64,000 bases of DNA from an uncultured virus (IMG/VR IMGVR_UViG_3300023179_005195) (taxonomy: Duplodnaviria; Heunggongvirae; Uroviricota; Caudoviricetes): positions 1 to 64,000 of IMG/VR virus record IMGVR_UViG_3300023179_005195; one strand, written 5' to 3'. The notes beneath the pieces were generated by a model. That model ran no database searches and was not told the origin of the DNA. It saw nothing but the letters and a program-made list of their open reading frames with translations. This document shows, one piece after another, positions 4,963-60,401 of the stretch; the stretch's first letter is position 1; each line of letters starts with the position of its first letter. The translations under genes and the position numbers were made by a program.

Positions 4963-4963
4963 A

Positions 4964-11755: not shown

Positions 11756-14029
11756 TTATTCAATTTCCGTTGTAACGCTTTGTTTTTTAGTTTTTACAGG
11801 CATTATATCTAATATATTGAATACAATTTTATCATCTATAATATCTAATTCTACAAGCCCGCCGTTATTAAGTTTTCCGAAAAGAATTTCTTTACTAAGG
11901 GGTTTCTTGATATGTTCGTCAATAGCTCGTGACAAAGGTCTAGCTCCCATTTTTGAATTAAACCCTTTGGCGATTAAGAAATCAGTCGCAGCTAAATTAG
12001 GTCTAACATGAATATTTTTTTCTTTAATTAATACATTTAGATCATCTATAAATTTGTTTACAATTTTTACCATGGTAATTTTATCAAGTTTTCCAAATTT
12101 TACCATACCATCTAAACGGTTTCTAAATTCAGGCGCAAAAAATCTGTTCACAGCATCTTTAGGGTCGCCGTCTCTTTCTAGACTACCAAACCCTACAGAA
12201 TTGCGTTCAGCATCTGCAGCACCTAAGTTTGAAGTCATAATAATTAAAGCATTACGTCCATCTGCTTTTTTACCATTGCTGCCTGTTATAAATCCATTAT
12301 CCATAAGTTGTAATAAGATACTAAGTACGTCGGGATGTGCCTTTTCTACCTCGTCGAGCAATAGTACGCAGTTAGGATTTTCTTGTAGACTGGTAATAAG
12401 TTGACCTGCATTTTCTTCAAACCCAACATATCCTGGCGGACTGCCTAAAAATTTAGCCACTGAATGTTTTTCTTGAAACTCACTCATATCAAATCTTATT
12501 AGTTTAATCCCTAGCCCAGTGGCTAGTTGCTTTGCTGTTTCAGTTTTACCTACTCCAGTTGGCCCAACAAACAAAAAGCTACCAATAGGTTTATCAACTG
12601 CTTTAAGACCTGCTTGACTAATATAGATTTTATCAACTAAACTTTCTATGGCCTTTTCTTGCCCAAAGATTTTTTGACGTAGTGTTTTGTCCAAGTTTTC
12701 AAGATTTACTGATTCTTTAGCACCTACCTGTTCTATAGGAAGATTTGCTATCTTAGCAACTTCAAAAACAATTTCCTCATGGTCTACTACACCGTTTTCT
12801 TCGTCTTTTACCTTAAACCGAGCACAAGCACAGTCAATAAGGTCTAATGCTTTGTCTGGCAATTTTTTATCAGGAATATACTTGACTGAATAACTTACTG
12901 CATCTAACAATGCTTGATTAGTAATTTTTACACCGTGATGTTTTTCGTAATATTTTTTTACACCTTTAAGAATTTTTATACAAGTATCCTCACTAGGCTC
13001 ATCAATTACTACACGTTGAAAACGTCTCATCAATGCACGATCTTTTTCAAAATGTTTACGAAATTCTTCCCATGTAGTACTAGCAACTACTTTAATAGTT
13101 CCTTTTGTTAGTATTGGCTTTAACATATTAGCCATATCATTGCTGTTGCCGCTGGCTGCGCCTGCACCATTCATCATATGAGCTTCATCTATGAACAATA
13201 TACAATTTTTCTTTCTTTCTAAGGCAGTTAAAACAGTTTTTAATCTTTCTTCAAAATCACCTCTATATTTTGAACCGGCAAGTAGTGAACTAATATCTAA
13301 ACTGTAGACACTGTGTTCTTTAATAAAAGAGGGAACATTATCTTCTACAATATTTTTAGCAAGTCCTTCTGCTATAGCAGTTTTTCCTACTCCTGGGTCT
13401 CCTATTAAAATTACGTTACTTTTATTACGTCTTGCCAACACTAATTGAACTTCTTCAATTTCTTTTTCTCTTCCTATAACAGGATCTATTTTTTTATTTT
13501 TAGCTTTTAATGTCAAATTTACGCAAAACTGATTTAGAAGTTTTTCTAAGTGTGGATGTAATCTTGTTTCACCTGTTTCATCCTCTACCACTTCTTTTAT
13601 ATTTTCTTTTTGTAAAAAGTTAATCAATTTATCTTTATCTATTTTTGCTCGTTTAAGAAAATAATGAGCATAACTTTTCTTTTCTGTAAATATTGCAAGT
13701 AAACAATCTATTGGTTCGATGACAGTTTTTCCGCCAAAAAGAACTGTAGTAAATGTTTTGTTTAATACTCTGTCAAATGTTTGAGTTTTCCTAGGTTTTT
13801 GTATCTCGAGATTGACAATATTAGATAGTTCTTCTTCTAAATATCTATCTAAATCGCTATTTAAACTAGTTAGGTCTGCCCCAAAGTCAGTTAAAATTTT
13901 GTTAAGTTCTTGACTATTAATTAAACAATGTAAAAAATGCTCTAAAGTGATATACTCATGATGCATTTTCATAGCTTTTATTACTGCCTGTTCAAAAACT
14001 CCTTCAAGTTCTTTATTTGGTGAAATCAT
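11756..14029 (-). CDS. clpA: ATP-dependent Clp protease ATPase subunit ClpA
   Basis: Two AAA+ modules (GDPGVGKT, GPTGVGKT), Clp N-domain HEYITLEH and ClpP-docking SVGF loop; start moved to MISPNK. Confidence 0.93.
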   Translation of the reverse strand: MISPNKELEGVFEQAVIKAMKMHHEYITLEHFLHCLINSQELNKILTDFGADLTSLNSDLDRYLEEELSNIVNLEIQKPRKTQTFDRVLNKTFTTVLFGGKTVIEPIDCLLAIFTEKKSYAHYFLKRAKIDKDKLINFLQKENIKEVVEDETGETRLHPHLEKLLNQFCVNLTLKAKNKKIDPVIGREKEIEEVQLVLARRNKSNVILIGDPGVGKTAIAEGLAKNIVEDNVPSFIKEHSVYSLDISSLLAGSKYRGDFEERLKTVLTALERKKNCILFIDEAHMMNGAGAASGNSNDMANMLKPILTKGTIKVVASTTWEEFRKHFEKDRALMRRFQRVVIDEPSEDTCIKILKGVKKYYEKHHGVKITNQALLDAVSYSVKYIPDKKLPDKALDLIDCACARFKVKDEENGVVDHEEIVFEVAKIANLPIEQVGAKESVNLENLDKTLRQKIFGQEKAIESLVDKIYISQAGLKAVDKPIGSFLFVGPTGVGKTETAKQLATGLGIKLIRFDMSEFQEKHSVAKFLGSPPGYVGFEENAGQLITSLQENPNCVLLLDEVEKAHPDVLSILLQLMDNGFITGSNGKKADGRNALIIMTSNLGAADAERNSVGFGSLERDGDPKDAVNRFFAPEFRNRLDGMVKFGKLDKITMVKIVNKFIDDLNVLIKEKNIHVRPNLAATDFLIAKGFNSKMGARPLSRAIDEHIKKPLSKEILFGKLNNGGLVELDIIDDKIVFNILDIMPVKTKKQSVTTEIE

Positions 14030-14031
14030 TT

Positions 14032-14520
14032 TTATTTCCTTTTCTTTTTTAATGCTAGGTCCCATTTAAGGCGACTCACACGATCTTTAAACACAATCCC
14101 ATCTAAATGATCGAGTTCGTGTTGAAAGCATTTACTACCTAAGTCAGTAAATGTACCTACTTGAAATTCTCCTTTACTATCTTGCCAAGAGCAATGTACA
14201 AACTTACTACGTTTTATTTTAACAAAAATATTCGGAAAACTCAAGCATCCTTCAGGTAAATCCTCTATTTCTTCTTCAAAATCTATAATTTTTGGATTAA
14301 AATATGCCTGGGAATCACCCTGTATAGCATAATCACCCATGACGAACACTCTGGCTTTTATCCCAACCTGATTAGCTGATAATCCTATACCCTTGTTTGT
14401 AATCATAGTTGATATTAAATTCTTTTCTAACTCTATAGGATCTACTATAGGATTAGCAAAATCGAATTCCGGCATTTTTTCAGACAGAATAGGATGCGGG
14501 AAAGATAAAATTTTGTACAT
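14032..14520 (-). CDS. def: Peptide deformylase
   Basis: GIGLSANQVG, EGCLSFP and QHELDHLDG motifs. Confidence 0.95.
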   Translation of the reverse strand: MYKILSFPHPILSEKMPEFDFANPIVDPIELEKNLISTMITNKGIGLSANQVGIKARVFVMGDYAIQGDSQAYFNPKIIDFEEEIEDLPEGCLSFPNIFVKIKRSKFVHCSWQDSKGEFQVGTFTDLGSKCFQHELDHLDGIVFKDRVSRLKWDLALKKKRK

Positions 14521-23718: not shown

Positions 23719-23967
23719 TTATACTCCTGTTGGTTTTTTATCTTTTTTTTCTATTGGTTTAATTTCTTCACGTTGTTTAGCAGGTGTTTTTTCGTAATAA
23801 TCTGCTACAATTTGTTCTCTTTTTCTTATTATCTTTCCACCTGGACCTAGCTCATCGCCTCTTGCATTAACACGTACGTTACCTACAGCAGGCATAAGTT
23901 CATTATTGCGCATGATTTTTTCCATGTCAACTTCTTTTCCTTGAAACGATTTATATGTTTTATTCAT
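23719..23967 (-). CDS. Hypothetical protein
   Basis: AVGNVRVNARGDELGPGG motif; overlaps the upstream stop. Confidence 0.7.
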   Translation of the reverse strand: MNKTYKSFQGKEVDMEKIMRNNELMPAVGNVRVNARGDELGPGGKIIRKREQIVADYYEKTPAKQREEIKPIEKKDKKPTGV

Positions 23968-24490
23968 TTTTTAACTCCTTTAGAAATTCATTTATATCTA
24001 ACTGATACTTCAAAGAATCTATTTTATGTACTCCTATTAAGTATAATACATAACTGGCAACGCAACTACCTCTGCCTACACCCCACACAATATTGTTTTC
24101 TCGCATGGTATCTACCAAGTATTTAAGGTAATATAATAGGTCATACATTTTATGCTGAGTAAATAATTTTAATTCTTTTTCTACTCTATTACGTTTTTCT
24201 TCAGTGTCACAAGACTGATATAACATTTCAATAAGATTCGGACAATAATTTTTTGGCATAAACCAATGGCCTTGATTATGTAGATCAAATTCTTCCATTG
24301 TTAAGTTATTCGATTGGATGGACCTTATACATGCAATATTATCTTTATTTTTGTTTAACGCATGATTAAACTGTGATACTACAGATTCTTCAAAGAAGAA
24401 CCTGCCTAAATCTTGTGTTTTTGTTGAATATATAACTTGAACAGCTTCATCCTCGCTTAAAGTAACCTGACCATATGAATTTATTTCCAT
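23960..24490 (-). CDS. Stand-alone DNA polymerase III alpha (DnaE) fragment
   Basis: RVEKEL, GVGRGSCVASYVLYLIGVHKIDSLKYQL..EFL match the DnaE GRGS region; ends before the PDID catalytic motif. Confidence 0.8.
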   Translation of the reverse strand: MEINSYGQVTLSEDEAVQVIYSTKTQDLGRFFFEESVVSQFNHALNKNKDNIACIRSIQSNNLTMEEFDLHNQGHWFMPKNYCPNLIEMLYQSCDTEEKRNRVEKELKLFTQHKMYDLLYYLKYLVDTMRENNIVWGVGRGSCVASYVLYLIGVHKIDSLKYQLDINEFLKELKNE

Positions 24491-29702: not shown

Positions 29703-30731
29703 TTAAATTAAGCCATTGGTTTCGGCAAACTCAAACAAGGCAAAACTGGCAATATTTTTACCTTTACTTTCGCACATGATATCGAATTGATCAGCGAATC
29801 TAAGAACATATCTATTCACTGTGTGATTCCAGAAAAAATCACTGTGAGCACGTAATTTTTGTTTTGTTATACCTCGTCTTAGTATTGATTCCATAAAAGG
29901 AGCTCCGCCCGGATCGTGTCCTACCAATACATCTTCTCTACTTATACTGTAATGAAGAACAGGCCTTTCTCCTCGCCAACTTTCTAATACTTTGTAAACA
30001 AGAGGATCTTCTGGTTGAATATACTCTCCTTCTCTAACCCAAAAATGATGTACATCTAGTACAATAGGCAAGATATCTGCTAATTCTAAACAATCAGCTA
30101 GGCCGTACTTTATTTCTTCATTTTCGATGGTAATTGTGTTACGTGCTTCTGGAGACAATCTTGAAAAGACGTTTCTAATGCCTTGGGGACCGGCGCGACC
30201 CGCGATGTGGACATTGATTTTAAAGTCTTGAAATTTCTTACCGTATCCCATCCAACGGGCCATATCCACATGATATTCAAATTCCTCTATTGACCTATTA
30301 ACAATTTCTGGATTATCAGAAGCAAGCACAGTATACTGGCCAGGATGAAAAGACAAGCGAATATTATCCCTACGAGCAATATCCCCAATAGTGAGAAAAT
30401 GGCGTTCAAGATACTGGCGAACGGTGTTATCTCTATAGAAATAGCTCCAACTTGGTTCAGTATAAACAGGGAGAATGTCACTGCTAAGACGTACCATACG
30501 AAGTTTTTCATTTAATTTCCCAACCCTTTCAACTAATAAACGTGTAGATTCAATATTGTTTTTAAGTAGATCCCACAGTTTTTTTTCAGCAACATCTTTA
30601 CTTTGTCTATTTAACCAAGCTACGGTAGTCGTGCCTGTATTATATTTTTTACAGTCGTCTTTAGCCTTAATTCCGTTTACTTGATCAGGCCTATCAATCC
30701 ACTTACACGCAAAACCAATTTTTTTTGTCAT
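29703..30731 (-). CDS. uvdE: UV-damage endonuclease UvdE
   Basis: IGFAC, RLSSD, RLSFHPGQY, INVH, TIENEE, LDVHH, RAHSD, DIMCESK. Confidence 0.92.
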   Translation of the reverse strand: MTKKIGFACKWIDRPDQVNGIKAKDDCKKYNTGTTTVAWLNRQSKDVAEKKLWDLLKNNIESTRLLVERVGKLNEKLRMVRLSSDILPVYTEPSWSYFYRDNTVRQYLERHFLTIGDIARRDNIRLSFHPGQYTVLASDNPEIVNRSIEEFEYHVDMARWMGYGKKFQDFKINVHIAGRAGPQGIRNVFSRLSPEARNTITIENEEIKYGLADCLELADILPIVLDVHHFWVREGEYIQPEDPLVYKVLESWRGERPVLHYSISREDVLVGHDPGGAPFMESILRRGITKQKLRAHSDFFWNHTVNRYVLRFADQFDIMCESKGKNIASFALFEFAETNGLI

Positions 30732-30750
30732 GTTATCTCCGATTTATATT

Positions 30751-30779
30751 ATTATAGCATTATTTTTCATATTTTACAA
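30751..30779 (-). promoter_or_regulatory. sigma70-like promoter for uvdE
   Basis: TTGTAA-17-TATAAT. Confidence 0.6.
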
Positions 30780-30791
30780 GTACAAATGGTA

Positions 30792-31463
30792 TTATCCGTG
30801 CCATTCTATTGTAGGAAACACTTCAATATTACTAACATATGTATTATCATTTAAATTTAATATTAAATCTATTATTTTTACGATTTCGGTTTTTGATAAT
30901 GCTTTGTTATGATCACCAAGAGGGTATGGATTAGATTCGTTCCACAACGGTGTATTAATTCCTCCTGGATGAATACTGAATACTTTTATTTTATCTTTTC
31001 TTAATTCTTTACCAATGATCTTGGCAAAAGATGTAAGAGCGTGTTTACTTGCACAATACACTGACTGATTATCTAAATTATAGAGTCCTGCTACACTGTT
31101 TATAAAGATAATATGACTGTTTTTACTTATATAGGGTAAAAGTAGTTTAGTAAGTATTACAGGTGATTTGATATTGACATTTAATATATTACAAATTTCT
31201 TCTATGGACAGATTTTCTAGTGTTGACTGTTTAAATCTTGCTGCATTATGTATAACCAAATCTACCTGATAAGGAAAGTTATTGAACAACTTAGCTAACT
31301 GATCATGGCATGACAAGTCTATTGGAATATGAATAAAGTTTTTATGTTCAATATTGCCAACAGTTCTAGAAAGTCCTATCACCTTAAAGTTATTTTGTAA
31401 AAAGTATTGGGCTATATCCTTGCCCAGTCCTTGACTAGTTCCTGTGATTAATGCTGTTTTCAT
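30792..31463 (-). CDS. Short-chain dehydrogenase/reductase
   Basis: TGTSQGLG, HNA, NS, YCASK, PGGINT. Confidence 0.92.
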   Translation of the reverse strand: MKTALITGTSQGLGKDIAQYFLQNNFKVIGLSRTVGNIEHKNFIHIPIDLSCHDQLAKLFNNFPYQVDLVIHNAARFKQSTLENLSIEEICNILNVNIKSPVILTKLLLPYISKNSHIIFINSVAGLYNLDNQSVYCASKHALTSFAKIIGKELRKDKIKVFSIHPGGINTPLWNESNPYPLGDHNKALSKTEIVKIIDLILNLNDNTYVSNIEVFPTIEWHG

Positions 31464-32529
31464 ATTCTAAGAATATTTCAATGGTTTTTTTTAAGTCGTC
31501 TGAAGTGACACCATTAGTAATGATATTCTTTCCTAAAGTTTTTGGTAAAGGAATATTTTGATAACCGTCTCTATGTAGTGTTGTCTCTTCTAGTGACATT
31601 AGAATTAAATTTATGTCTGCGAAATCCGAATGAAAAGTTGGCAGTTTGTATTTTCTTATACAATTGTATATACGATTTAGGTCTTGTTTGGTTATAAAGT
31701 TTTTATAATAACTTAAGCAACAGGAAAAAAAGCAATCTAACATTACTGCTTCACCATGTAACATAGAAGGTAGATTTTTCATTTCAATCATAGGACTAAA
31801 TGTATGTCCAAAATCTACTGGTCGTTTTAAGTTTCTTTCATACAGATTGTTTTGTAGTTCGTTAACCATGGTATCTATAGATTGAAATAATATTTCATCG
31901 CTATTTTGTAATGAGTTTGAAACGATATTATTACCTTGTTCAATAAGTTCGAATAATTTTAAATTGCTAATAATAGCGAGTTTTAAAATTTCACCAATTC
32001 CATTTATAATCTGTTTTTCTTCTTGAGTTTTGAAGAACTTTTTGTCTAATAAGACTTTAGAAGGGGGATAATAGCTACCCAATCTATTTCTTTTACCTAA
32101 GTAATTAATTCCAACCTTAGTACCTATACTTGCATCTACGTAGGCAAGTAAAGTAGTAGGAATTTTTATATACGGAATTCCTCTTCTATATATACTACAT
32201 GCAAATCCTACCAAATCCAATAACACTCCTCCTCCTATTGCAATTACTTCTTCTCTTCTTAAAAGATTATTATGGTTGAAAAAATTAATAATCTTTTCAA
32301 TACTTTGCAAATTTTTTTGAGTTTCTTCGATTTGAAGTTTTAGTATTACAGCATCTGGAAATATATCAAGAAAGTCGGAATATAATAAACTAATTTTTTT
32401 ATCTACAATAATAATTTGTCTTTTATTAAAATCTATATGGTTTTTTAAAAAATTATTATTAGTAAGATCATATGTTTCTATTATCGAAAATTCTTGTTCT
32501 AATTGGCAATTTATATTCCAAGTATTCAT
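31435..32529 (-). CDS. Sedoheptulose-7-phosphate cyclase, 2-epi-5-epi-valiolone synthase-like (DHQS superfamily)
   Basis: GGGVLLD, YRRG, PTTL, NRLGSY, MVNELQNNLYE, RPVDFGHTFSP, LHGEAV. Confidence 0.8.
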   Translation of the reverse strand: MNTWNINCQLEQEFSIIETYDLTNNNFLKNHIDFNKRQIIIVDKKISLLYSDFLDIFPDAVILKLQIEETQKNLQSIEKIINFFNHNNLLRREEVIAIGGGVLLDLVGFACSIYRRGIPYIKIPTTLLAYVDASIGTKVGINYLGKRNRLGSYYPPSKVLLDKKFFKTQEEKQIINGIGEILKLAIISNLKLFELIEQGNNIVSNSLQNSDEILFQSIDTMVNELQNNLYERNLKRPVDFGHTFSPMIEMKNLPSMLHGEAVMLDCFFSCCLSYYKNFITKQDLNRIYNCIRKYKLPTFHSDFADINLILMSLEETTLHRDGYQNIPLPKTLGKNIITNGVTSDDLKKTIEIFLEYENSINHRN

Positions 32530-33485
32530 TTAAAAATCTTATTAAATAGGTAACAAGCATGTACGAAGAAATATTTAGCCTTGTCTATTTCTCCTGCATA
32601 ACATTTAAATGGCAACATTCTTATAAATTGACTAGCTTCTAAAATATCTATAAATGTTAAATCTTTTTTATTAATATTATTAAGAAAACATTCTGTAAAT
32701 TTCAAATAATTTTTTGGAACTACTTGGTTATAAAATACTGAGTTACCATTGATATTGACTTCTCTATCATTAATAAATCCATAAAAGCTTCTAGAACATT
32801 GTAATACCTGACTATAGTCTAAAAACTTACTATCTATTATACTTTCTTCATATAAATCTATAAATTTTATTTTGTCTTCATCTATTGAATACATGGTGTT
32901 TTCAAGTGTGGGATTGCCATGAATAAAGTTTTCATATTCTAAATCTATAGATGAAAAATATTTTTCTAATACATGCAGCTCATTTACAATATTAGGAACT
33001 TTTTGACCATTATAAAAATATGAATTATGTTTAAGAAAATTGTTAAATCCTTCATTTTTTCTTGCATCTAAAATTTTTTGAAATATTTCTTCTTGAAAGT
33101 AAAGAAAAGTTGCTCCTTTGTTTGCAATTAACTTATTTGCATGAATTTTATTAAATGCTTGCCAAAGTGAATTATTAATTTTTAAAATGAGATTATCTGA
33201 TATATGATCTCTTGAAAAAATAGTTTTTATGTCTGTATATCCCTGTAAAAATTCTAAATCAAAATAAGCGTTGCCATTTTCTACTCCAACGCTTAAAACT
33301 TTAGGGACAAGATTTGGCCACATTGTCGTAAATCTCTGCAACTTTTTTAACTGAGAATACCATCTTACATACCCGTATTCTCTAGACGATGAAAGATTAA
33401 TGGTTTTCCTTACAAATTCAAAATTATTATCTTTATGATGATTAGTTGAACTTAAACTTCCTCCTTTTAGCGGTATAATTTGCAT
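32526..33485 (-). CDS. APH/choline-kinase-like phosphotransferase
   Basis: LKGGSLS glycine loop; IHGNPTLEN (Asn at the usual Asp); KFIDL. Confidence 0.65.
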   Translation of the reverse strand: MQIIPLKGGSLSSTNHHKDNNFEFVRKTINLSSSREYGYVRWYSQLKKLQRFTTMWPNLVPKVLSVGVENGNAYFDLEFLQGYTDIKTIFSRDHISDNLILKINNSLWQAFNKIHANKLIANKGATFLYFQEEIFQKILDARKNEGFNNFLKHNSYFYNGQKVPNIVNELHVLEKYFSSIDLEYENFIHGNPTLENTMYSIDEDKIKFIDLYEESIIDSKFLDYSQVLQCSRSFYGFINDREVNINGNSVFYNQVVPKNYLKFTECFLNNINKKDLTFIDILEASQFIRMLPFKCYAGEIDKAKYFFVHACYLFNKIFK

Positions 33486-33487
33486 AT

Positions 33488-33685
33488 TCAGTCTGCAAGG
33501 TGCTGAGTCAATAACACTATTTCTTCTTTGGTCAAGAAGAAACTATAGGTACTGGTAAAAGTTTTGTCTCTAATTTGCTGCCCCTCTAATTCTATATGAT
33601 ATAGATTTTTAGGGGAGTCGCACAAAGTTTTTTTTAAAATTAAACGAAAATCTTCAGTTTGTCTAATAATTTTTTCAGTTTTCAT
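33488..33685 (-). CDS. Hypothetical protein
   Basis: Short co-oriented ORF with overlapping start/stop. Confidence 0.6.
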   Translation of the reverse strand: MKTEKIIRQTEDFRLILKKTLCDSPKNLYHIELEGQQIRDKTFTSTYSFFLTKEEIVLLTQHLAD

Positions 33686-33876
33686 TTTGAAAAATCCTCG
33701 AACATTAATTTTCTTCCTCGTGTACCTATTTCTTGATCTAGTAAATCTTTACAGGTAATCATTAAACAGCTAGCTAACATTATAAGTTCGTTTCTATCAT
33801 CGCACATCATTATTTGACGATCTATGGGCCCCATTAGTTCTTTCATACGGTTTTTTATATCATCGTTATTCATCAT
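33682..33876 (-). CDS. Hypothetical protein
   Basis: Short co-oriented ORF with overlapping start/stop. Confidence 0.6.
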   Translation of the reverse strand: MMNNDDIKNRMKELMGPIDRQIMMCDDRNELIMLASCLMITCKDLLDQEIGTRGRKLMFEDFSK

Positions 33877-34178
33877 GTTCTCTTTAATAAGACAAATAAA
33901 TCTTTTTTATTTTTAGGTGACCAAAATTTTCCTTCCGGCCCACATCTAGTTTCATCTTGAAAAATTTTTAATCTTTCAAATCTTGCTGACCTATATCTTC
34001 CTGGTTCGTACCTTATACCTACTACAGGATCGTGTTCTTCGGTCGCTTCTGTATATGCTTTTTTACAATACAAATAACTGGATTTATCAAACCATGCCAT
34101 GGGATAATCTTGCCATCTAAAAAATCCATGAATACAGTCTTTGCATAAAACATTATCTGACATATCAAATTCTATCAC
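33873..34178 (-). CDS. Hypothetical Cys-containing protein
   Basis: CKDC..H and CGPEGKFW motifs; start may be MSDNVL. Confidence 0.65.
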   Translation of the reverse strand: MIEFDMSDNVLCKDCIHGFFRWQDYPMAWFDKSSYLYCKKAYTEATEEHDPVVGIRYEPGRYRSARFERLKIFQDETRCGPEGKFWSPKNKKDLFVLLKRT

Positions 34179-34383
34179 TTAGTAATAGTTTACACATGAA
34201 GGCATCATGCTCATCTTCGAACTCAAATAGCATGTAATCATACTCTGGCTTATAAATGAACTTATCGCCGGGTAGTCCGAATACTTCAAGGACCATGGCA
34301 CAGGTTTCATTCCACCAGATATTTCCCTGATCGTCGGACCAGTTCACTCTGATTTTGTGCTGATACTTTTTTCCAATGTCCAA
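34165..34383 (-). CDS. Hypothetical protein
   Basis: FGLPGDKF...FEDEHDAFMCKL. Confidence 0.6.
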   Translation of the reverse strand: MDIGKKYQHKIRVNWSDDQGNIWWNETCAMVLEVFGLPGDKFIYKPEYDYMLFEFEDEHDAFMCKLLLSDRI

Positions 34384-34532
34384 GAACCATCTCCGTTATC
34401 CTGCCATTTTATGGTGTCTCCCTCATTCCACCCAGTTTTAGCTAAAAAATCTGGAGGAAATTGAATCATAGCATCACCTGTTTGAGGGTCTTCTTGTACT
34501 TCCAATGTCCATTTATAATTTAAATTATTCAT
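34344..34532 (-). CDS. AbrB/MazE-like small protein
   Basis: IQFPPDFLAKTGWNEGDTIKW swapped-hairpin pattern. Confidence 0.6.
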   Translation of the reverse strand: MNNLNYKWTLEVQEDPQTGDAMIQFPPDFLAKTGWNEGDTIKWQDNGDGSWTLEKSISTKSE

Positions 34533-34555: not shown

Positions 34556-35488
34556 TTACAGTCTATATTTAAAATAGTCAATGGTATATGATAATCCTGT
34601 ACCTAAATCAATACTAGGTTCCCATTTTAATATCTTTTTGGCCATGTCTATATTTGGTCTACGTTGCAATGGATCGTCATCCGGTAGTTTTTTATATACT
34701 ATTTTGCTTACACTATGAGTCTTTTCTAAAATAATCTTGGCTAATTCCAGTATTGTAAATTCACCGGGGTTACCTAAATTTATCGGCCCGCAGGTATAAA
34801 AATCGGTGTCCATCATAGATACCATGCCACGTATTAGATCATCTACATAACAAAAGCTCCTGGTCTGGTTACCGTTACCATATATGGTAATATCTTCTCC
34901 TCTTAACGCTTGTACTATGAAATTACTGATCACACGGCCGTCGTCAATACCAACTCTTGGTCCGTATGTATTAAAAATTCTAACAATTTTTGTATCCACG
35001 TGATGTTTGCGTCTATAGTCCATAAACAGAGTTTCTGCTGAACGTTTGCCTTCATCATAACAAGCACGAGTCCCAATAGGGTTAACATTGCCCCAATAAT
35101 CTTCTGTCTGTGGGTGAATTTGAGGATCACCATAGACTTCACTAGTACTGGCTTGTAAAATTTTCGCACCTGTGCGTTTGGCCAATCCCAACATATTGTA
35201 AGCACCTAATATGCTGGTCTTCATGGTCTGTATAGGATCTAGCTGATAATACTTAGGACTAGCAGGGCAGGCCAAGTTATAGATTTCATCTACTTCTACA
35301 TACAATGGAAAACAGATATCTTGTCTTAAAAATTCAAAATAGGGATTAGGTAATAAGTGCTGGATATTTTGTATACTTCCAGTAAAATAATTATCTACAC
35401 ACAATACGTGATTACCTTTTTTTAAAAGATATTCACATAAATGGCTACCTAAAAAACCTGCTCCACCTGTTACTAATATTTTTTTCAT
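34556..35488 (-). CDS. UDP-glucuronate decarboxylase (UDP-xylose synthase-like)
   Basis: [46 protein letters not shown]. Confidence 0.92.
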
Positions 35489-36669
35489 TATGTTCCTTTA
35501 ACAATTCTTACTAATTCTTTAGCAGTAGCACTGGCTAATGTCCATCCTAAATGGCCATGGCCTACATGATAAAATATCTTAGGATTTTTACCTTGTTTTA
35601 CAATAGGCAGCATGTTAGGGGTCATGGGTCTAAGACAAGCCCAAGGTTTGTAATATCTTGTTGAAATATCAGGAAAATTATTGTTAACCCATTTCAATAG
35701 TGGATTGATTCTATCTTGCCTTATGTCCCAATTATCACCTATTATTTCTGCTGTACCCGCTACCCTGAGATGATTACCCAGTCTGCTGGTTACTATTTTA
35801 GATTCGTCGTCTAAAAGGCTTACGAATGGAGCAGATTCTGATGAGCTCAAAGTATCTAACTTAATTGTTATACTATAGCCTTTTACTGGATAGATAGGTA
35901 AATTATCACCTAGCATTTTACTGGTATGTCTAGCATGACTGCCGTTGGCTATGATGATATGATCGTAATCTAATAATTTTTCAATAGATAGTATTTCAGT
36001 ATTAAAGAAAAATTTAACATCATATTTTTCTTCTAATTTTTTGTATAATTCGAAACAAAATTTATGAATATCTCCGGTATAATCGCTAGGCGTATATATA
36101 CCTCCAACTAGGTTATCAAATTTTTCAAGTGCGGGTTCAATTTTAAGTAATTTACTATAATCGTTAATAATTTGCCATTCGCACCCATTGTGGGCATAAA
36201 GTTCTTGTAACATCATGGCTTCATTGAAATAATTTGCATTTTTATAGATATGTAAAATACCCTTGTTCAACCGATCATATTTTATATTTTCTTCTTTTTC
36301 GATCTCACTATACAATTTACGTGATTCTAATCCTAGTGTAATTGTTTTAATTGTATTTCTAGCGAATTCATTATTTGCTGTATGATATAAAAACTTAGCT
36401 AGCCATTTGGCTTTATCCCAATCTAAACTAGGTCTTAATAAAAGCGGAGCATCTTTACGAGCCAACCATTTAATACCCTTATAGACATTTGACCAAGTAT
36501 TCCATGTTTGGCTATTACTTACAGAGATTTGCCCGCCATTTGCATAACTACATTCCATAGCAGGATAAGATTCTTTTTCATAAACTTTAACATTGTAACC
36601 TGCTTGTGTCAAATAATAAGCAGCGGTTATTCCTGCTATTCCTGCTCCAATTACTGCTACATTTTTCAT
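35488..36669 (-). CDS. dadA: FAD-dependent D-amino acid dehydrogenase-like protein
   Basis: [46 protein letters not shown]. Confidence 0.85.
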
Positions 36670-36679
36670 ATTTGCCTAA

Positions 36680-36859
36680 TTATTTTGTTTTACGCCACCA
36701 ACGTTCTGTATCTGCCCATGATTTATCACTGCAATCTCTGCACTCGTAAAAACCATTAGGCAGATCTGGTGTAATTACAATATTCAGCCAAAATCCTATA
36801 ACACATCCAAGGATTACGAGTATTACTGCACCTATTAATGAGAAAATAAAATCCTTCAT
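36680..36859 (-). CDS. Small membrane protein
   Basis: Hand-translated MKDFIFSLIGAVILVILG...; ATGA overlap with the queD stop. Confidence 0.5.
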   Translation of the reverse strand: MKDFIFSLIGAVILVILGCVIGFWLNIVITPDLPNGFYECRDCSDKSWADTERWWRKTK

Positions 36860-37419
36860 TCAAAGCCTGCAAATAAATCCTCATTCCATTCTCTATGACC
36901 TTCTCTAAAAGCCATGTTAGCCTGAGTTTCTCTTACTTCCACACGATAACACCATAGTCTGTCTGCTTCGCCTGGACCCCACATATCAGGAATATAAACA
37001 GCGTTGACATACTTGTAAAGCATGTCTGCTAGACTTTCGCAACCTAATTTAGGTAATATTGTAAGTTTCGCTAATTTTTTCTCCTGAAGTAATTTAAATG
37101 TTTGAAATTCCGGATCATCTTGTGCCACCAGTAATGTATGATCGAATTTATCTTCTAAAAATTTTTTTAATTCTTTTAATCCGCCATAATCAGCAGCCCA
37201 GTTCCTTACATCTAAATCATTAGTTCCAAAATAGAATTTCATAGAAAATGAATAACCGTGTATCATATTACAATGGCTGTCAGCTCGCCATTGACGATAT
37301 GCACAAGGAAATGCGTCATGATATTCTTTTGTACTGGTATATTTGTATGTTACAGGATAATATGTTGAAAAGCTTGTTTCAGAATTTTGTTTTAGTTCTA
37401 ATGTTGATGATCTTGTCAT
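36856..37419 (-). CDS. queD: 6-carboxytetrahydropterin synthase (QueD/PTPS family)
   Basis: HCNMIHGY, DYGGLK, FDHTLL, CESLA, EVRET. Confidence 0.85.
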   Translation of the reverse strand: MTRSSTLELKQNSETSFSTYYPVTYKYTSTKEYHDAFPCAYRQWRADSHCNMIHGYSFSMKFYFGTNDLDVRNWAADYGGLKELKKFLEDKFDHTLLVAQDDPEFQTFKLLQEKKLAKLTILPKLGCESLADMLYKYVNAVYIPDMWGPGEADRLWCYRVEVRETQANMAFREGHREWNEDLFAGFE

Positions 37420-53326: not shown

Positions 53327-54016
53327 TTATCGTTTCTGGCAAGAATTTACAATATTCATAAATTCTAATCGTACACTGGGATCTGATTTAAATACTCCTC
53401 CCAATTTACTAGTTGTAGTAGATGAACCTGTGTCCTCAACTCCTCTACTTTTGACACAATAATGTTGGGCGTCGATAACTACCGCAATATTTTCTGTATC
53501 TAAAATATAGGATAACGCATGATATATCTGTTCAGTAAGTCTTTCTTGAATTTGAGGACGTTTACTAAAATATTCTACTACTCTATTAATTTTACTCAAT
53601 CCTAGTACTTTTGTTCTTGGTATGTATGCTACTGTGGCCAATCCGTCAATAACAACAAAATGATGCTCACAATTGGATTGAACATTAATATTACGTTCTA
53701 CGACCATTTCATCGTATTTCATTTTATTGTCCACTGTGGTACATTTAGGAAATGCTTCCCAATCTAACCCCCAGAAGATTTCATTTACATACATCTTGGC
53801 CACACGCTTTGGTGTTTCTGCTAGACTATCATCTGATAAATCTAGATCAAGAGCCTTCATTATTTGAGAAAACAATTGCTCAATTACTTCAATTTTACCT
53901 TTACGATCTATTATAAAGGTTCGTTCACTAGTAGGAGTTTCTACTCCGCATTTTACCAAATGTTCATGAATACGACGACCAAGATCAGGGTCTGTTTTAG
54001 TTTTATTATAAGACAT
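53327..54016 (-). CDS. folE: GTP cyclohydrolase I
   Basis: ETPKRVAKMY, SNCEHH, GLSKINR, RPQIQERL, HYCVKSRG; start MSYNKTK. Confidence 0.95.
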   Translation of the reverse strand: MSYNKTKTDPDLGRRIHEHLVKCGVETPTSERTFIIDRKGKIEVIEQLFSQIMKALDLDLSDDSLAETPKRVAKMYVNEIFWGLDWEAFPKCTTVDNKMKYDEMVVERNINVQSNCEHHFVVIDGLATVAYIPRTKVLGLSKINRVVEYFSKRPQIQERLTEQIYHALSYILDTENIAVVIDAQHYCVKSRGVEDTGSSTTTSKLGGVFKSDPSVRLEFMNIVNSCQKR

Positions 54017-54085
54017 TATATTTCCTTCCTTACGCGGTACGCTTAATTTGTCACCGTTATGTGACATTCATATTTATTTGTCAGA

Positions 54086-54349: not shown

Positions 54350-55063
54350 TCAATACCAGATATAAAAATTATTTTTAAACGGCTTTCCATTTTTTGCCTT
54401 ATTGAGATTTTTTTGAATTTGCTTTTTGAGTCGTTGCATCACAGGATGGTTCCAATCTTTTTTAAAAACCTGTAAGTATTTCCTTAAACATGGCATTTTG
54501 GTTGTATGGCATTTAATTTTACCATCTAAAAAATCTATAATACGTAGATTATCATTTTTAAACTTCATTAGTAGTTCACAGGCAATGTTAAAACTGTAGG
54601 CATCTATCTCATCTCTATGTCCAAGATAATTTTGTTCTTCTCTTAATTCAGTATGTTTTACTACACTTATATAATTAGGAATGTCTTTATAATTTCTTTT
54701 TCTATATTGCCTCATATGGATAATTTCGTGTAACATAACATCACTTATTAAACTAGCTAAAGAAAATAAATTCGATGTGCATATGCTGATTTTTTTATAT
54801 CTTTTAGCATAATAACAATCTATTGTGATAGATTTTTTTCCTAATTGATCTGATTCGGCACAATAAGAGCCCCCTATATAAATTTCATTTTTTGGAACTT
54901 TAGGTGTATAGTGAGCTTTTACAATAACTGGTGCAATTGACTTTATATGCCTAGATAGACGTTTATGAAATAAGGTTACAGGTAGATCATCATCCTGCAA
55001 ATTATATGTTTGATATATACTGTCTATAATATGGTTTCTAGATAAATTAGCCCAGATAAACAT
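54350..55063 (-). CDS. HExxH zincin-like metallopeptidase
   Basis: LHEIIHMRQY...DEIDAY; start MFIWAN. Confidence 0.65.
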   Translation of the reverse strand: MFIWANLSRNHIIDSIYQTYNLQDDDLPVTLFHKRLSRHIKSIAPVIVKAHYTPKVPKNEIYIGGSYCAESDQLGKKSITIDCYYAKRYKKISICTSNLFSLASLISDVMLHEIIHMRQYRKRNYKDIPNYISVVKHTELREEQNYLGHRDEIDAYSFNIACELLMKFKNDNLRIIDFLDGKIKCHTTKMPCLRKYLQVFKKDWNHPVMQRLKKQIQKNLNKAKNGKPFKNNFYIWY

Positions 55064-55071
55064 CAAAATAT

Positions 55072-55773
55072 TTATAATATTAATTTTTTTGGAATCATAT
55101 ATAACCAATTCATTACACCAGGCCTACCTTCACTCAATAGCAAATTTTTTTCTTCTTTGGTTAGATCTTTAATAGCATGATGATCCGATGTTTTGTTTAA
55201 ATCATCTAAGATATTAAAGACATGATGTGAATCATTAAATCTTTCATTTAAAATTTGCGTAATAGGAATACCTTGAAAATCGTGGCATTCAACAATAATA
55301 CACGATTTTACCAATTCGCTGTTTATGTTTTGATCTAAAAAAGTTATCTCATACCCTTCAACATCTATGAATAAAAAAGGTTTCTTGTACTTGCGCATAA
55401 TATATTGTATTACATCTATATCAGCATAGTTCCATAATTCTACATTAGATAACTTATTTGATTGAAGATTATACAAAGCATTAATTAGCTCGTGTTCTGC
55501 ATTATCTATAAGAATGTTTCTGACATTGGGGAGTCGTTTAGCTAACCCTAACCCGTAATATCCTTCACCACACCCTAAATTTATAACTAAATCTGGTTGG
55601 TAGTTTATTGTCTGTTCAATGGCAGCGTAAAGTTGCGATTCATAACTTCCTAATAATTTATTTCCTAAACATCCATTGTCGTAATTGCATAATTTTAAAC
55701 CAGTAAAGGGTCCTTGTTGAACAATCCCTTGTGTTCTTTCATGTACAATATTATTTAAATATGTTCTATTCAT
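55072..55773 (-). CDS. Class I SAM-dependent methyltransferase (FkbM-like)
   Basis: GSYE, INLGCGEGYYG, IDVEGYE, IVECH; start MNRTYL. Confidence 0.75.
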   Translation of the reverse strand: MNRTYLNNIVHERTQGIVQQGPFTGLKLCNYDNGCLGNKLLGSYESQLYAAIEQTINYQPDLVINLGCGEGYYGLGLAKRLPNVRNILIDNAEHELINALYNLQSNKLSNVELWNYADIDVIQYIMRKYKKPFLFIDVEGYEITFLDQNINSELVKSCIIVECHDFQGIPITQILNERFNDSHHVFNILDDLNKTSDHHAIKDLTKEEKNLLLSEGRPGVMNWLYMIPKKLIL

Positions 55774-56524
55774 ACAATAATCTTCCATCTTTACTGGTAT
55801 ATCTTTTATTAGGGTCAAAATGACCGTATGTTTCAAACCCAGGTTCTCCTGGTAATATACGTTTGCCTGTGAACCATTCACCGATATGGTTTATAAGTTT
55901 AAGTCCAAAAAAGTTTTTAACATTGGCAGATACCATGCCGTATTTGTCATTTAAAATTTTACCAATTGTCCCTTCATTAATATTATGAGAAATTAATTCT
56001 TTCCAGGGATACTTAATTATATTATGGCTATAAAGACTGGCCATAGGTGAAAATATGCAACTATTTTTTTGGTACCTAAAATTCTTGTAAATTATATCAT
56101 CGTTGTTTGCACTAGGATCTTGCTCATTACTGTACCAAGCCTGTCTAGATAATGTAACCTGACTGATTTGTTTGTCTTTTTCTAAAATTTCAATTAAATC
56201 ACTTATACAAATAGGTTCTAGAAAGACCACATCATCCTCTTGATGAAATATATAATCATACTCTCTATCTCTTATCATATTCCAAAATTCTGTCCAGGTA
56301 GCACTTAGACCAATATTGTTCTTATGAAAAATTATTTCGTTATAGTTATAGTAAGTTAAAAATGATCTTAACATAAGATCATTTCTTGTCCTGGGATAAT
56401 CATCTATAAAAATCTTATCAACTTTACATCCGTACCAATTTAACATTCTTTGACTATTCAAACTTGGGATTAGATATTCTAGTCTGTTAGTGCTAAAAAT
56501 GATGTGACAAATTTTATAACTCAT
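55766..56524 (-). CDS. GT2-like glycosyltransferase
   Basis: FIDD, NIGL, FHQEDD, HIG. Confidence 0.7.
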   Translation of the reverse strand: MSYKICHIIFSTNRLEYLIPSLNSQRMLNWYGCKVDKIFIDDYPRTRNDLMLRSFLTYYNYNEIIFHKNNIGLSATWTEFWNMIRDREYDYIFHQEDDVVFLEPICISDLIEILEKDKQISQVTLSRQAWYSNEQDPSANNDDIIYKNFRYQKNSCIFSPMASLYSHNIIKYPWKELISHNINEGTIGKILNDKYGMVSANVKNFFGLKLINHIGEWFTGKRILPGEPGFETYGHFDPNKRYTSKDGRLLYE

Positions 56525-57063
56525 TATGTATCAAAGAAAAAAGTTTGAAAAAGTCTTCCATTGTGTAGATTATCACCAAAATAATCTATACTCGCATGAA
56601 ATAAGTCTCCTCTATACAAGATTAATCTATTATACCTATTTCCTATTTTATCGAACAGATCCCATTTGGTAAAATCATACCCTTCATAGTCGGTATCTAC
56701 TCTTCTATAATTTTTAGATAGTTTGTGTTGGTAAAGAGCAGTTCCTGCACTTACAGGAGCATCTGGGCTAAGATAACATACTCCTGCCCATTTGTTAAAG
56801 TAGTCACTGTGTATCCAAGTTCTATCTTGTGCAGTAGCTATTTGAAAAGCCCCTGTATATCCGTAATTTTCAAACCAATTAGTAATACGTCCTACAGGAT
56901 TCATCCAATGTTGGATTGAAAATTTTACATCTTCGGGCAAATATGGTCTTGTTCTAGCACCCGGAAAATTACCAGTGACATTAAAAGGCAGGCTCAACGC
57001 ATAATTTCTAACTATATCAGGATTGGTATAGAAATTATCTACAATAATTAAGGTAAGATCCAT
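56524..57063 (-). CDS. 2OG-Fe(II) oxygenase-like protein (DUF6445-like)
   Basis: VDNFY..PD, WIHSD (HxD), YNRLILY..FH, RLFQ. Confidence 0.78.
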   Translation of the reverse strand: MDLTLIIVDNFYTNPDIVRNYALSLPFNVTGNFPGARTRPYLPEDVKFSIQHWMNPVGRITNWFENYGYTGAFQIATAQDRTWIHSDYFNKWAGVCYLSPDAPVSAGTALYQHKLSKNYRRVDTDYEGYDFTKWDLFDKIGNRYNRLILYRGDLFHASIDYFGDNLHNGRLFQTFFFDT

Positions 57064-57824
57064 TAATATTTTAAATACCTTCCATTAACACCGTCCCATC
57101 CATTTACGGTCCATGGAACATGAATTATATCTTGTTCAAATTCTCTTGTAAAGAAATATAATAAAGTTTCTATATCGTAATGTGTTGAATTTTCTTTGCC
57201 TGTTATTTCGCAGATTACTCGATTTATGTCTAGCATTTTATCTAGATATTGTGATCCCCAACCATATAATACACTAGAGTATTGATAAAGTTTATTATCA
57301 CCTTGTAAAGCTCTTCTATCTACCATTTGATAACCCCAGTTATCATTCCAGTCAAAGCTAAGATGATTTTTAAAGAATAGTTTATCTGTGTTTTCTGGTG
57401 TAAAATATTCTAAGCTAAAAGATCCATCTATAAAATACCTACCACTAAGTTTACATATATAATCGTAATGTCTAAGTTCGTCATAAAATTTTTCCATAAA
57501 TGTTTTTACTATTGTTGTTTCGCAATGACTTTTATTATTATGAGTCCTTACCTTGTGATATATTTCTGGAAATAATTTTTTTACACTGATAAATTTACAG
57601 CGTCTTTGCCAGTTTATCACGCCTTCATAAGAGTCGTAATTATCTGACGCATCTATTACAAAAATATCTAGTTCGGGATTTCTTACTAGGTCTAAAGAAT
57701 TAACAGTGAATAGTGTTTGTCGAAGTCTTTCTTCTGATGAGAAATGAGACCTAACCTGGCTATAAGTTAATGGATACTGATTGTCAACATCTATACTACT
57801 TGTTACTATAAAAGCAATTTTCAT
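57063..57824 (-). CDS. Hypothetical glycosylation-island protein
   Basis: ERLRQT, KLSGRY; GT-A-like appearance. Confidence 0.6.
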   Translation of the reverse strand: MKIAFIVTSSIDVDNQYPLTYSQVRSHFSSEERLRQTLFTVNSLDLVRNPELDIFVIDASDNYDSYEGVINWQRRCKFISVKKLFPEIYHKVRTHNNKSHCETTIVKTFMEKFYDELRHYDYICKLSGRYFIDGSFSLEYFTPENTDKLFFKNHLSFDWNDNWGYQMVDRRALQGDNKLYQYSSVLYGWGSQYLDKMLDINRVICEITGKENSTHYDIETLLYFFTREFEQDIIHVPWTVNGWDGVNGRYLKY

Positions 57825-58840
57825 CTATAGAAATCTTTTGATTGTAATTTGACCAAATAGTCATGATATTTTTTATATATCACTTCTTCTCCGTAATTAT
57901 CTTCAGCAAATTTTCTGCAAACATGTGGGTCAATAGTATGTATATTTTTCAAAGCATCTACGAACTCTCTCATTTCTCTACATCTAAATCCTGTAACACC
58001 ATGTACTACTGTATCTATAAAACCACCCCAATCAGTGGTTATCGATGGTGTACCAGATAAGTATCCTTCAATTACCATATTTCCAAAAGGTTCTATATAG
58101 TATGTAGGTCCAAATATTGCTTTGGCATTTTTCATTAGTTCTTTTCTTTGTCGTGCGTCGCACAATCCTACACAGGTAACATGTTCGGGTATTTCTTTAT
58201 ATCCTAGATCTTCTAGAGAACCTGGTCCTGCTATTATTAATTTATCACCCGATAATTGAGTAGCCTGTATACAAACATTTATTCCTTTACTTTCTATTAC
58301 TCTTCCAAAATAAAGAACATAGTTTTCTTTTTTGGCTGTAAATTCAAATTCGCTTGGAGTAAATCCATTAGATATTACAGCATCAAACCAGCTAGGAGTC
58401 ATTAACATCTTATGATGCCCATAGTACATATGTTGTACAGCATAAGAAGAGAACACTCTAAAAGGGGCAAATACAGCAGTATGATCATAGGCTATGTATG
58501 GTTCTACAATAGTTAAGTCAATGTTCATTTCTGCTGCTTGCTGGTTGCCCCATCCATGAAAACACATGATCATGTCTCCAGGTTTTTTACGTTGTTGAAT
58601 TTCTTTACCTGCGTTGACATTGTATACTCTCATGTTTTCCTGGTAGTCATTATAGATAAAAGGTAACGCCATGACAGTTTCGCAATTAACTTGGCAACCT
58701 GGTATTCCATAATGTATACAATCCCAACCGTATTTCATCATGTTGTCAATAAACTTAACGGCTCCTACAGCAAACGCATCTATACGATTATCAATGTGTA
58801 CAGGTTTGTCTGGAGCAGAAAGTATGTGTAATGTAGTCAT
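57821..58840 (-). CDS. GT-B (GT4) glycosyltransferase
   Basis: FGRVIESKG, EPFGNMVIEGYLSGTP, VVHGVTGF. Confidence 0.88.
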   Translation of the reverse strand: MTTLHILSAPDKPVHIDNRIDAFAVGAVKFIDNMMKYGWDCIHYGIPGCQVNCETVMALPFIYNDYQENMRVYNVNAGKEIQQRKKPGDMIMCFHGWGNQQAAEMNIDLTIVEPYIAYDHTAVFAPFRVFSSYAVQHMYYGHHKMLMTPSWFDAVISNGFTPSEFEFTAKKENYVLYFGRVIESKGINVCIQATQLSGDKLIIAGPGSLEDLGYKEIPEHVTCVGLCDARQRKELMKNAKAIFGPTYYIEPFGNMVIEGYLSGTPSITTDWGGFIDTVVHGVTGFRCREMREFVDALKNIHTIDPHVCRKFAEDNYGEEVIYKKYHDYLVKLQSKDFYR

Positions 58841-58874
58841 ATTATTAATTATCTTAATACTTAATTACAAAAAA

Positions 58875-59054
58875 TTATTCTGGTCTCCATTCTACTCGAC
58901 CCCATTGATCGACTTTGGCAATACTAGAGATACGTTTGATTTCAACATAATCTTTTTTCTCAACAATTATAACGCCTCCTCTTTTTACTAGGTCTTCTAT
59001 TTTTTGAGTAGCATTAAAATTTAACGGTTCAAATTTTTTTAATTTTTTATTCAC
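58875..59054 (-). CDS. Small hypothetical protein
   Basis: Hand-translated, GTG start with SD GGAG, 59 aa. Confidence 0.5.
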   Translation of the reverse strand: MNKKLKKFEPLNFNATQKIEDLVKRGGVIIVEKKDYVEIKRISSIAKVDQWGRVEWRPE

Positions 59055-59063
59055 AATATTCTC

Positions 59064-59666: not shown

Positions 59667-59917
59667 TATTTTGCTCCTGATGATTTCTTCAATATATACA
59701 TACTAACTACTGGTCCTTCTATCTTTACCAAATCAGATGGATATCTATTGTATGTTAGCGATTGCCACTTTCTTGGAGGTTCTATTTTCTTAATTTTTAC
59801 CATTTTTGGATTTATTTTAACGACTATTCCCAAATCTAAAGAATTATGTAGTGAATATACTACACAATCGCCTATCTTGATTTCTTGGTCAAGTTTATCT
59901 CTAAATAATTCTGTCAT
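59666..59917 (-). CDS. Hypothetical protein (SH3/KOW-like)
   Basis: DKLDQEIKIGDCVVY...PKMVKI. Confidence 0.65.
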   Translation of the reverse strand: MTELFRDKLDQEIKIGDCVVYSLHNSLDLGIVVKINPKMVKIKKIEPPRKWQSLTYNRYPSDLVKIEGPVVSMYILKKSSGAK

Positions 59918-60330: not shown

Positions 60331-60346
60331 GTTCACCTCCTTGTTT

Positions 60347-60375
60347 ATTTTAACAGATTTTTCAAATTATGTCAA
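60347..60375 (-). promoter_or_regulatory. sigma70 promoter with extended -10
   Basis: TTGACA-17-TAAAAT, with TGn before the -10 box. Confidence 0.7.
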
Positions 60376-60376
60376 G

Positions 60377-60401
60377 AAAAATGCAGGACTAGCCTGCATT
60401 T
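60377..60401 (-). terminator. Intrinsic terminator
   Basis: AATGCAGG-CTAGT-CCTGCATT hairpin followed by a T-run. Confidence 0.75.

Follow-up and report, generated by a model that had tools for sequence, protein, structure and literature searches.

The window analysed here is a 64,000-nucleotide stretch of DNA from an uncultured virus of the Caudoviricetes (IMG/VR record IMGVR_UViG_3300023179_005195), comprising positions 1 to 64,000 of that record, which is 73 kb long. On its minus strand it carries a compact cassette of three genes, which may encode a pathway to a C7-cyclitol (a carbasugar). From the upstream end, the genes are:

32526 to 33485, minus strand: KIN, a protein with an APH/protein-kinase-like fold, 319 amino acids
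31435 to 32529, minus strand: cyclase, a predicted sedoheptulose-7-phosphate (SH7P) cyclase of the EEVS type (synthase of 2-epi-5-epi-valiolone), 364 amino acids
30792 to 31463, minus strand: SDR, a classical short-chain dehydrogenase/reductase, 223 amino acids

All three reading frames are intact, and they overlap, KIN and cyclase by 4 nucleotides and cyclase and SDR by 29. The GC content of the cassette is 27.2%, compared to 35.6% for the window; the cassette coincides with the lowest-GC 2.7-kb sliding windows, and its genes rank 1, 2 and 7 by low GC among 46 genes. The original prediction, made from the sequence without database searches, described three overlapping and very AT-rich genes, and this is borne out. 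The motifs that it singled out (NRLGSY, MVNELQNNLYE and RPVDFGHTFSP) are all present in the 364-residue protein.

The 2694-base cassette recurs without a single difference in a 138-kb IMG/VR record (G001), which is rated 35% complete. In a run from a different study (X7), contigs covering 30656-31924, 31879-32468, 32549-32992 and 32975-33891 differ by 0-1 letters. They span UvsE-SDR-cyclase and KIN-upstream genes, that is, both outer junctions; the KIN-cyclase junction at 32469-32548 lies outside every listed X7 piece. X10 and X11 hold near-identical pieces over the flanks, with none listed inside the cassette, and an empty allele there was not accepted, given a depth of 2-5 and no contig joining across. 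At low stringency, one X12 contig links 30725 to 34449; it may belong to another phage. The runs holding the stretch come from lake, pond and other freshwater metagenomes, with no RNA run among those listed, and when metagenomes were scanned with the single KIN protein, this phage was the sole hit. PHROGs matches among the 61 proteins scanned include baseplate wedge and hub, late sigma factor, DNA polymerase and clamp loader, by which the carrier is classed as a large myovirus-type phage. A promoter and terminator scan was at chance (31 against 24.1 +/- 5.1), and no tRNA genes were found.

The cyclase, the reductase and the kinase-like protein

The cyclase contains the Pfam domains PF01761 and PF24621, of the two-domain fold seen in 3-dehydroquinate synthase (DHQS), and several of its database relatives are automatically named 3-dehydroquinate synthase. 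It could on these grounds be an ordinary AroB of the shikimate pathway, a reading that we consider next to negligible. Its score against the aroB model TIGR01357 is 215.7 bits, where the cut-off is 305; at positions 221, 239 and 246 it has M/D/P, as against K/N/H in all four AroB references; and it has no shikimate neighbours. Grouping with AroB was named at the outset as a refutation of the EEVS assignment. In a quick tree of 112 rows, the cyclase lies within the SH7P-cyclase clade, apart from the four AroB sequences and EboD (SH-aLRT 100), and inside a set of 32 KIN-linked cyclases (98); ValA itself and EVS are absent from the rows of this tree.

The best solved match is 4P53 (E 1e-67), followed by 5TPR (1e-55) and DHQS (2e-43). 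According to the accessible parts of PMC4426668 and PMC10666671, 4P53 is the EEVS ValA and 5TPR is the DDGS MysA; the latter paper, in the same measure, gives Leu267, Asp281 and His360 of EEVS as being replaced by Glu, Ala and Thr in DDGS. L225, D239 and H319 of the window cyclase align to the ValA triad, with one constant numbering offset (six) in the 4P53 chain, and this triad is invariant in the 80 viral cyclases collected below. The cyclase thus has L, D and H instead of Glu254, Ala268 and Thr347 of DDGS. L247, a DDGS from a mycosporine cluster, has T, A and E at the triad positions, and EboD differs as well. The His/Glu/His metal positions of ValA are retained, and the other residues listed are M221, P246, H242, H258 and an Arg147 in place of a Lys in ValA. 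Of 17 positions picked in this analysis, independently of the published 14-residue fingerprint, 16 match two Streptomyces/Burkholderia homologues, the one difference being R147 for K. Arg147 is present in 47/47 KIN-linked cyclases and in 6/59 other homologues, with Lys in 53/59 of those lacking KIN; the rows are related, and the pattern may reflect a single event. Together, the score, the top match, the triad, the M/D/P residues and the tree make it highly likely that the protein is an EEVS-type SH7P cyclase and not AroB, in agreement with the original prediction.

A grouping of the cyclase with Prochlorococcus in the 112-row tree (support 82) was not trusted, the branches being long and AT-rich. 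In a concatenated tree of KIN and cyclase, a clade of 29 rows, mostly viral, contains the window copy (100/99) but does not resolve its place, so that no donor can be named. Matches to the cyclase among GenBank phages comprise 15 records, all of them 30% identical or less, and there is no GenBank phage match for KIN; PHROGs has no family for either protein.

The SDR matches PF00106 (E 6e-37) with its TGxxxGxG motif intact, and S123, Y136, K140 and R33 are invariant in 87/87 cassette SDRs; R33 presumably indicates a preference for NADP(H). No solved SDR structure was matched at E 1e-20. In four cellular loci (L084, L088, L091 and L101) the SDR position is occupied by an aldo-keto reductase, which suggests that the conserved need is for carbonyl reduction. 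The cassette is found in marine picoplankton, namely the Prochlorococcus single-cell genomes L088 and L091 and Actinomarina L082, the Prochlorococcus form being the one with the aldo-keto reductase.

The label 'kinase' for KIN rests on its fold, since it finds no support in Pfam, NCBIfam or PHROGs. The AlphaFold model (pLDDT 94.6) superimposes on APH(4)-Ia with Z 19.2 and root-mean-square deviation (rmsd) 3.1 over 263 aligned residues, and also matches methylthioribose kinase, N-acetylhexosamine 1-kinase (NahK) and LicA, in each case over the whole chain. KIN retains K27, N196 and D210. At the position of the Asp in HGDxxxxN, which we take to be the catalytic Asp of APH kinases, it has Asn191 (HGNPTLEN). 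Among the best 150 hits of a search of 1.84 billion sequences, 17 are fragments without the catalytic loop; the core, cyclase-linked family has Asn in 97/97 and a sister family has Asp in 36/36, which suggests that the Asn form is specific to the partnership with the cyclase. The KIN tree needs two Asn/Asp changes, the second being L085, an Asp-containing member nested inside the Asn clade. L085:1234-2328 is the only KIN with a canonical HGD, and comes from an archaeal bin with no SDR. Fusions to membrane, HAD or nucleotidyltransferase domains occur in the sister family, while in the core family P0154 is a natural KIN-cyclase fusion of 728 residues. In P0128 (480 residues) KIN is joined to a GIY-YIG homing endonuclease, and in L048:923-1839 KIN is split over two open reading frames. 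Complex prediction for cyclase plus KIN scored 0.00 in two runs, which gives no answer either way.

It could be argued that KIN is no ordinary kinase, being either a nucleotide-binding but non-catalytic partner of the cyclase, or an enzyme using ATP for other chemistry, such as phosphorylation-elimination to a valienol-type donor. The uniform Asn, the constant presence of the cyclase beside KIN (80/80 loci, besides the fusion) and the lack of a dehydratase in the cassette all fit such a role. We nevertheless regard it as rather improbable. In 44/44 aligned members there is no variation at K27, N196 and D210, in the Gly-rich start or at many residues on the acceptor side; L085 has Asp in the same gene context; and the nucleotidyltransferase that is commonly linked to the cassette (see below) needs a phosphorylated substrate. 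A search of five phage records, including one that is 95% complete, found no ROK kinase, which leaves KIN as the obvious source of the phosphate. On the strength of the linked nucleotidyltransferase and the missing ROK kinase, KIN is most likely an atypical but active kinase. The kinase originally proposed therefore stands as regards its APH fold, while HGN in place of HGD makes phosphorylation less secure than the title of that proposal implied.

Conservation and gene neighbourhoods

Relatives were collected by a profile scan of IMG/VR with the cyclase (103 relatives, 80 kept, one being this phage), by a reciprocal scan with KIN (125 relatives, 80 kept), and from GTDB (251 loci found, 80 kept), where some contigs of metagenome-assembled genomes could be binned phage. 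KIN is present in 78/80 viral cyclase loci and SDR in 79/80, the misses being at contig ends (for KIN, at a cut contig start). Conversely, cyclase is present in 80/80 KIN loci and SDR in 76/80, the four misses being truncated. The two sets overlap and hold near-copies, and cover several unrelated gene contexts. KIN is found in 21/80 of the cellular loci. The trio is thus co-conserved in related phages, as had been proposed.

In the relatives the trio genes are under purifying selection, with dN/dS of 0.04-0.23 in 15/15 gene comparisons (five phage pairs, all three genes). The window copy is about 50% identical to its nearest relatives, and keeps 64/68, 37/38 and 28/31 of the family-conserved positions in its three genes. 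That the cassette is incomplete, stranded and at present functionless would be consistent with the atypical GC, a long terminal branch and a fourth gene that was not found (see below); however, at this divergence the three frames are still intact, the conserved positions are kept or conservatively changed, and near-identical DNA occurs in other studies, so that we consider a stranded cassette very improbable.

The genes on either side of the cassette are:

29703 to 30731, minus strand: UvsE UV-damage endonuclease (PF03851), in the downstream flank and outside the cassette
33488 to 34532, minus strand: five small conserved phage open reading frames in the upstream flank, where most relatives have a nucleotidyltransferase

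The adjacency to uvsE is peculiar to this phage. Of the 80 uvsE loci closest to it, the 79 others have none of the trio genes, although many have short upstream flanks. Two of them, L167 and L168, retain QueD, D-amino-acid dehydrogenase and the small open reading frames, one of which ends 7-8 nucleotides before uvsE; homologues of three or four of the five directly precede UvsE there. The empty site in L167 and L168, together with the low GC, points to insertion of the trio in this lineage, its position next to uvsE being incidental. Elsewhere in the window, 2803-6094 (minus strand) encodes LysM/transglycosylase and DUF6267 proteins that are distant relatives of genes flanking the cassette in T4-like carriers.

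This bears on a role in gadusol or mycosporine sunscreen synthesis, which the neighbouring uvsE might suggest, EEVS being the entry step to gadusol (PMC4426668, in its accessible part). The DDGS residues E/A/T are absent from the cyclase, the uvsE adjacency is found in 0/79 other loci, no PF01596 O-methyltransferase was found in 5/5 phage records (all incomplete, and including the 138-kb record), and a kinase and a nucleotidyltransferase play no role in such routes. We give this role hardly any credence, and on sequence grounds both it and the AroB reading are effectively excluded.

A nucleotidyltransferase accompanies the trio in 70/80 viral loci (53 of them cognate, at more than 150 bits, and 17 with a more distant paralogue) and in 21/21 cellular KIN loci (18 cognate and 3 more distant). 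Among solved structures 4EVW matches it best (E 9e-35), followed by enzymes of the RmlA/GlmU type, with ribitol-5-phosphate cytidylyltransferase a little weaker. The presence of a predicted sugar-1-phosphate-type nucleotidyltransferase in most copies points to a nucleoside diphosphate (NDP)-activated carbasugar. It is missing from ten viral loci. Nine of them break off within 2.6 kb upstream of the cyclase, which leaves this phage as the one case with an upstream flank of the full 6 kb. In L013, L019, L031, L037 and their relatives a more distant nucleotidyltransferase and a small protein resembling cupins lie upstream of KIN, and in the same group (19/80 viral loci) a RuBisCO-like protein precedes the trio.

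Two further neighbours recur. One (c4, DUF7796) is found in 63/80 viral loci and has a glycosyltransferase-A (GT-A) fold (Z 12.2, rmsd 3.6, 193 residues aligned); the other (c5) is a GT-A-type gene after the SDR in 48/80. Among the 16 cellular loci scanned out of 21, 11 have a glycosyltransferase, Wzx, Wzz or similar polysaccharide-assembly neighbour. The window itself contains a distant relative of c5:

57063 to 57824, minus strand: GT-A-fold protein in a second low-GC glycan module, a candidate acceptor enzyme (unproven)

This protein matches c5 by hidden Markov model at E 1.3e-4, and in the Atlas its structure matches GT6 and GT8 clusters (TM 0.66 and 0.62); by profile comparison it is unrelated to c4. 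It lies in a second module at 54350-63807 (minus strand), partly as AT-rich as the cassette, which encodes an FkbM-like methyltransferase, GT2, GT-A and GT4 glycosyltransferases, a C-methyltransferase, a cupin, and a UDP-4-keto-pentose/UDP-xylose synthase over the NCBIfam cut-off; this content suggests branched-sugar glycosylation. At 34556-36669 (minus strand) an NDP-sugar epimerase/decarboxylase-like gene adjoins D-amino-acid dehydrogenase, as it does in L167.

The phage has the 7-deazaguanine synthesis genes QueD, FolE and QueE (window 36856-37419 and 53327-54067; L161:17332-18198); unannotated proteins near QueE (L161:9240-13030 and 13256-14356) could be an insertion or modification step. 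With these genes and several glycosyltransferases, modified DNA is plausible, and the cyclitol might hypermodify bases of the phage genome and so protect it from restriction. The scanned recurrent neighbour clusters include no recognised DNA-modification gene, and the cellular copies adjoin surface-glycan genes; such a use is in our view quite improbable. Of the uses proposed originally, then, a glycan is favoured by the nucleotidyltransferase, the GT-A neighbours and the 11/16 cellular loci, decoration of DNA is left without direct support, and a UV or antioxidant compound is disfavoured.

Two other features of the viral DNA stand apart from the cassette. At 23960-24490 (minus strand) there is a stand-alone fragment of 176 residues matching part of the NTPase domain of DNA polymerase III alpha, the replicative polymerase being elsewhere, and G000 64550-71280 encodes membrane proteins resembling fatty-acid desaturases and a ketoacyl-synthase-like gene, judged by eye from the translations.

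Proposed pathway and comparison with known systems

We propose that the trio is the fixed core of a mobile C7-cyclitol cassette, and would give the full mechanism an even chance of being right. In the first step, the cyclase would convert host sedoheptulose 7-phosphate to 2-epi-5-epi-valiolone, for which the case is strong; no transaldolase was found in the five phage records searched. In the second, the SDR with NADPH would probably reduce the valiolone ketone to a valiolol-type polyol. In the third, for which we have a little less confidence, the HGN kinase-fold protein KIN would phosphorylate the cyclitol, the likeliest position being the new C1 hydroxyl, as for AcbU, through a mechanism that is atypical in dispensing with the usual base. 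In the fourth, proposed for the four-gene family, the RmlA/GlmU-like nucleotidyltransferase would form an NDP-cyclitol, and GT-A-fold enzymes would transfer the cyclitol to a glycan, carried either by virion proteins or by the host surface. For that step this phage would have to rely on a host enzyme or on a gene lying beyond the 138 kb sequenced. A reduced C7 carbasugar, as originally proposed, is the likely product. The order of kinase, nucleotidyltransferase and transferase is established for acarbose (PMC9200736, in the part accessible).

Several results weigh against this pathway. A family-specific nucleotidyltransferase profile has no match in the 138 kb of G001 (35% complete), while 4/4 control records were positive, and a six-frame search of G000 and the rest of G001 found none either. 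(Genome searches with Pfam PF00483 and PF12804 were uninformative, as they missed the known gene in the control G007.) The same 138 kb contains no homologue of c4, and five of the 16 cellular loci scanned (L091, L094, L102, L110 and L160) have no glycosyltransferase or polysaccharide gene. Clustering reduces the 80 viral cyclases to 25 groups at 90% identity and to 7 at 70%, so that near-copies inflate the counts given above. Asn occupies the catalytic-base position in 96/97 readable KIN loci (2/99 being cut), and Arg147 for Lys means that the substrate or product of the cyclase may differ from those of ValA. Finally, there is no epimerase or dehydratase in the cassette, so that the product would be a saturated cyclitol. 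A saturated NDP-cyclitol would be expected to be a poor glycosyl donor, better suited to phospho-cyclitol than to glycosyl-type transfer, and the transfer step characterised for acarbose uses GDP-valienol (PMC9200736, again from its accessible part).

An alternative is that the trio is the whole pathway in this phage. The product would then be a free valiolol or valiolol phosphate, acting as a sugar mimic that inhibits a host glycosidase, glycosyltransferase or heptose/lipopolysaccharide (LPS) enzyme, or else the trio would simply drain SH7P from host LPS-core synthesis. This is the only viral locus with a full flank and no nucleotidyltransferase, and 17 more have just a distant paralogue; the three genes arrived together, at a position that is empty in relatives, and stay conserved; and free C7-cyclitols such as streptol are bioactive (PMC12904256, in its accessible part). 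No paper was found that pairs a carbasugar cyclase with LPS synthesis. We judge a free cyclitol unlikely, though not negligibly so: the genome is 35% complete, several glycan genes including the distant c5 relative lie elsewhere in the phage, and the nucleotidyltransferase is kept in all 21 cellular KIN loci.

Returning to the activated cyclitol, a wider view, which we hold tentatively and as possible rather than probable, is that aquatic phages and planktonic bacteria share an undescribed minimal NDP-C7-carbasugar pathway for virion or cell-surface glycans. The linkage might be a phosphodiester, as with CDP-ribitol; the coats would be glycosidase-resistant; the kinase would belong to a new Asn kinase-fold family; and the three-gene form in this phage would borrow its activation step.

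C7-cyclitols are familiar as secreted metabolites of actinomycetes and symbionts, and as sunscreens. The original remark that no such pathway was known to have been described in a phage agrees with our literature search, which found no viral C7-cyclitol pathway (subscription papers were not covered) and nothing relevant on the cassette or the HGN kinase. In the part of a 2026 review that was available, neither 'virus' nor 'phage' occurs. The cassette is a real, conserved and unstudied variant of known chemistry in an unexpected host. If the proposal is right, it would supply a new building block for viral and bacterial glycobiology and a three- or four-enzyme route to activated pseudo-sugars, would define a family of kinase fold whose active site is unusual, and would mean that phage genes automatically named 'aroB' are not shikimate auxiliary genes.

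The closest known counterpart of the predicted cyclase is ValA (4P53), which it resembles in fold, as its best solved match, in the L267/D281/H360 triad and in the His/Glu/His metal positions. It differs from ValA in being viral, in having Arg147 for Lys, and in belonging to a separate KIN-tied clade. DDGS/MysA (5TPR), the gadusol route of EEVS and MT-Ox, and the ebo operon belong to the same sugar-phosphate cyclase superfamily. The flanks on either side contain neither an O-methyltransferase nor an ATP-grasp ligase (the latter being looked for in the flanks only), and no MT-Ox adjoins the cassette, although no search was aimed at it. EboD falls outside the cyclase clade, and the ebo partner genes EboA/B/C/E/F are not among the neighbours of the cyclase, whose partners are wholly different.

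KIN resembles the APH-fold kinases (APH(4)-Ia, methylthioribose kinase, NahK and LicA) in its whole-chain fold (Z 14-19) and in its Lys, loop Asn and metal-binding Asp, and differs from them in having Asn for the catalytic Asp throughout its family, at an identity of 9-15%. AcbM and ValC are ROK-type kinases, a type for which the search of this phage's record gave no match.

In CDP-ribitol synthesis (TarI/TarJ) and the LicA/LicC/LicD system, a reductase or a kinase together with a nucleotidyltransferase produces an activated polyol phosphate for a surface polymer. Such a logic would suit a saturated cyclitol. It differs in that the nucleotidyltransferase of the family matches sugar-1-phosphate enzymes somewhat better than IspD/TarI, and there is no LicD among the neighbours scanned.

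The pathway as a whole most resembles the GDP-valienol branch of acarbose and validamycin synthesis (AcbC, AcbM, AcbO, AcbL, AcbN, AcbU, AcbJ, AcbR and AcbS; PMC9200736, in its accessible part), with which it shares a cyclase, a reductase and a kinase, and to which the relatives add a nucleotidyltransferase and a transferase. The core has three or four enzymes, with no second kinase (7-kinase), epimerase, dehydratase or phosphatase. Its nucleotidyltransferase is 4EVW/RmlA/GlmU-like, while AcbR is described in the same source as resembling glucose-1-phosphate adenylyltransferase. Its neighbours are GT-A enzymes in a surface-glycan context, whereas acarbose is a secreted pseudo-oligosaccharide. 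The proposed route would thus be a shortened parallel of the AcbC-AcbN-AcbU-AcbR-AcbS route to acarbose set out in the accessible part of that paper.

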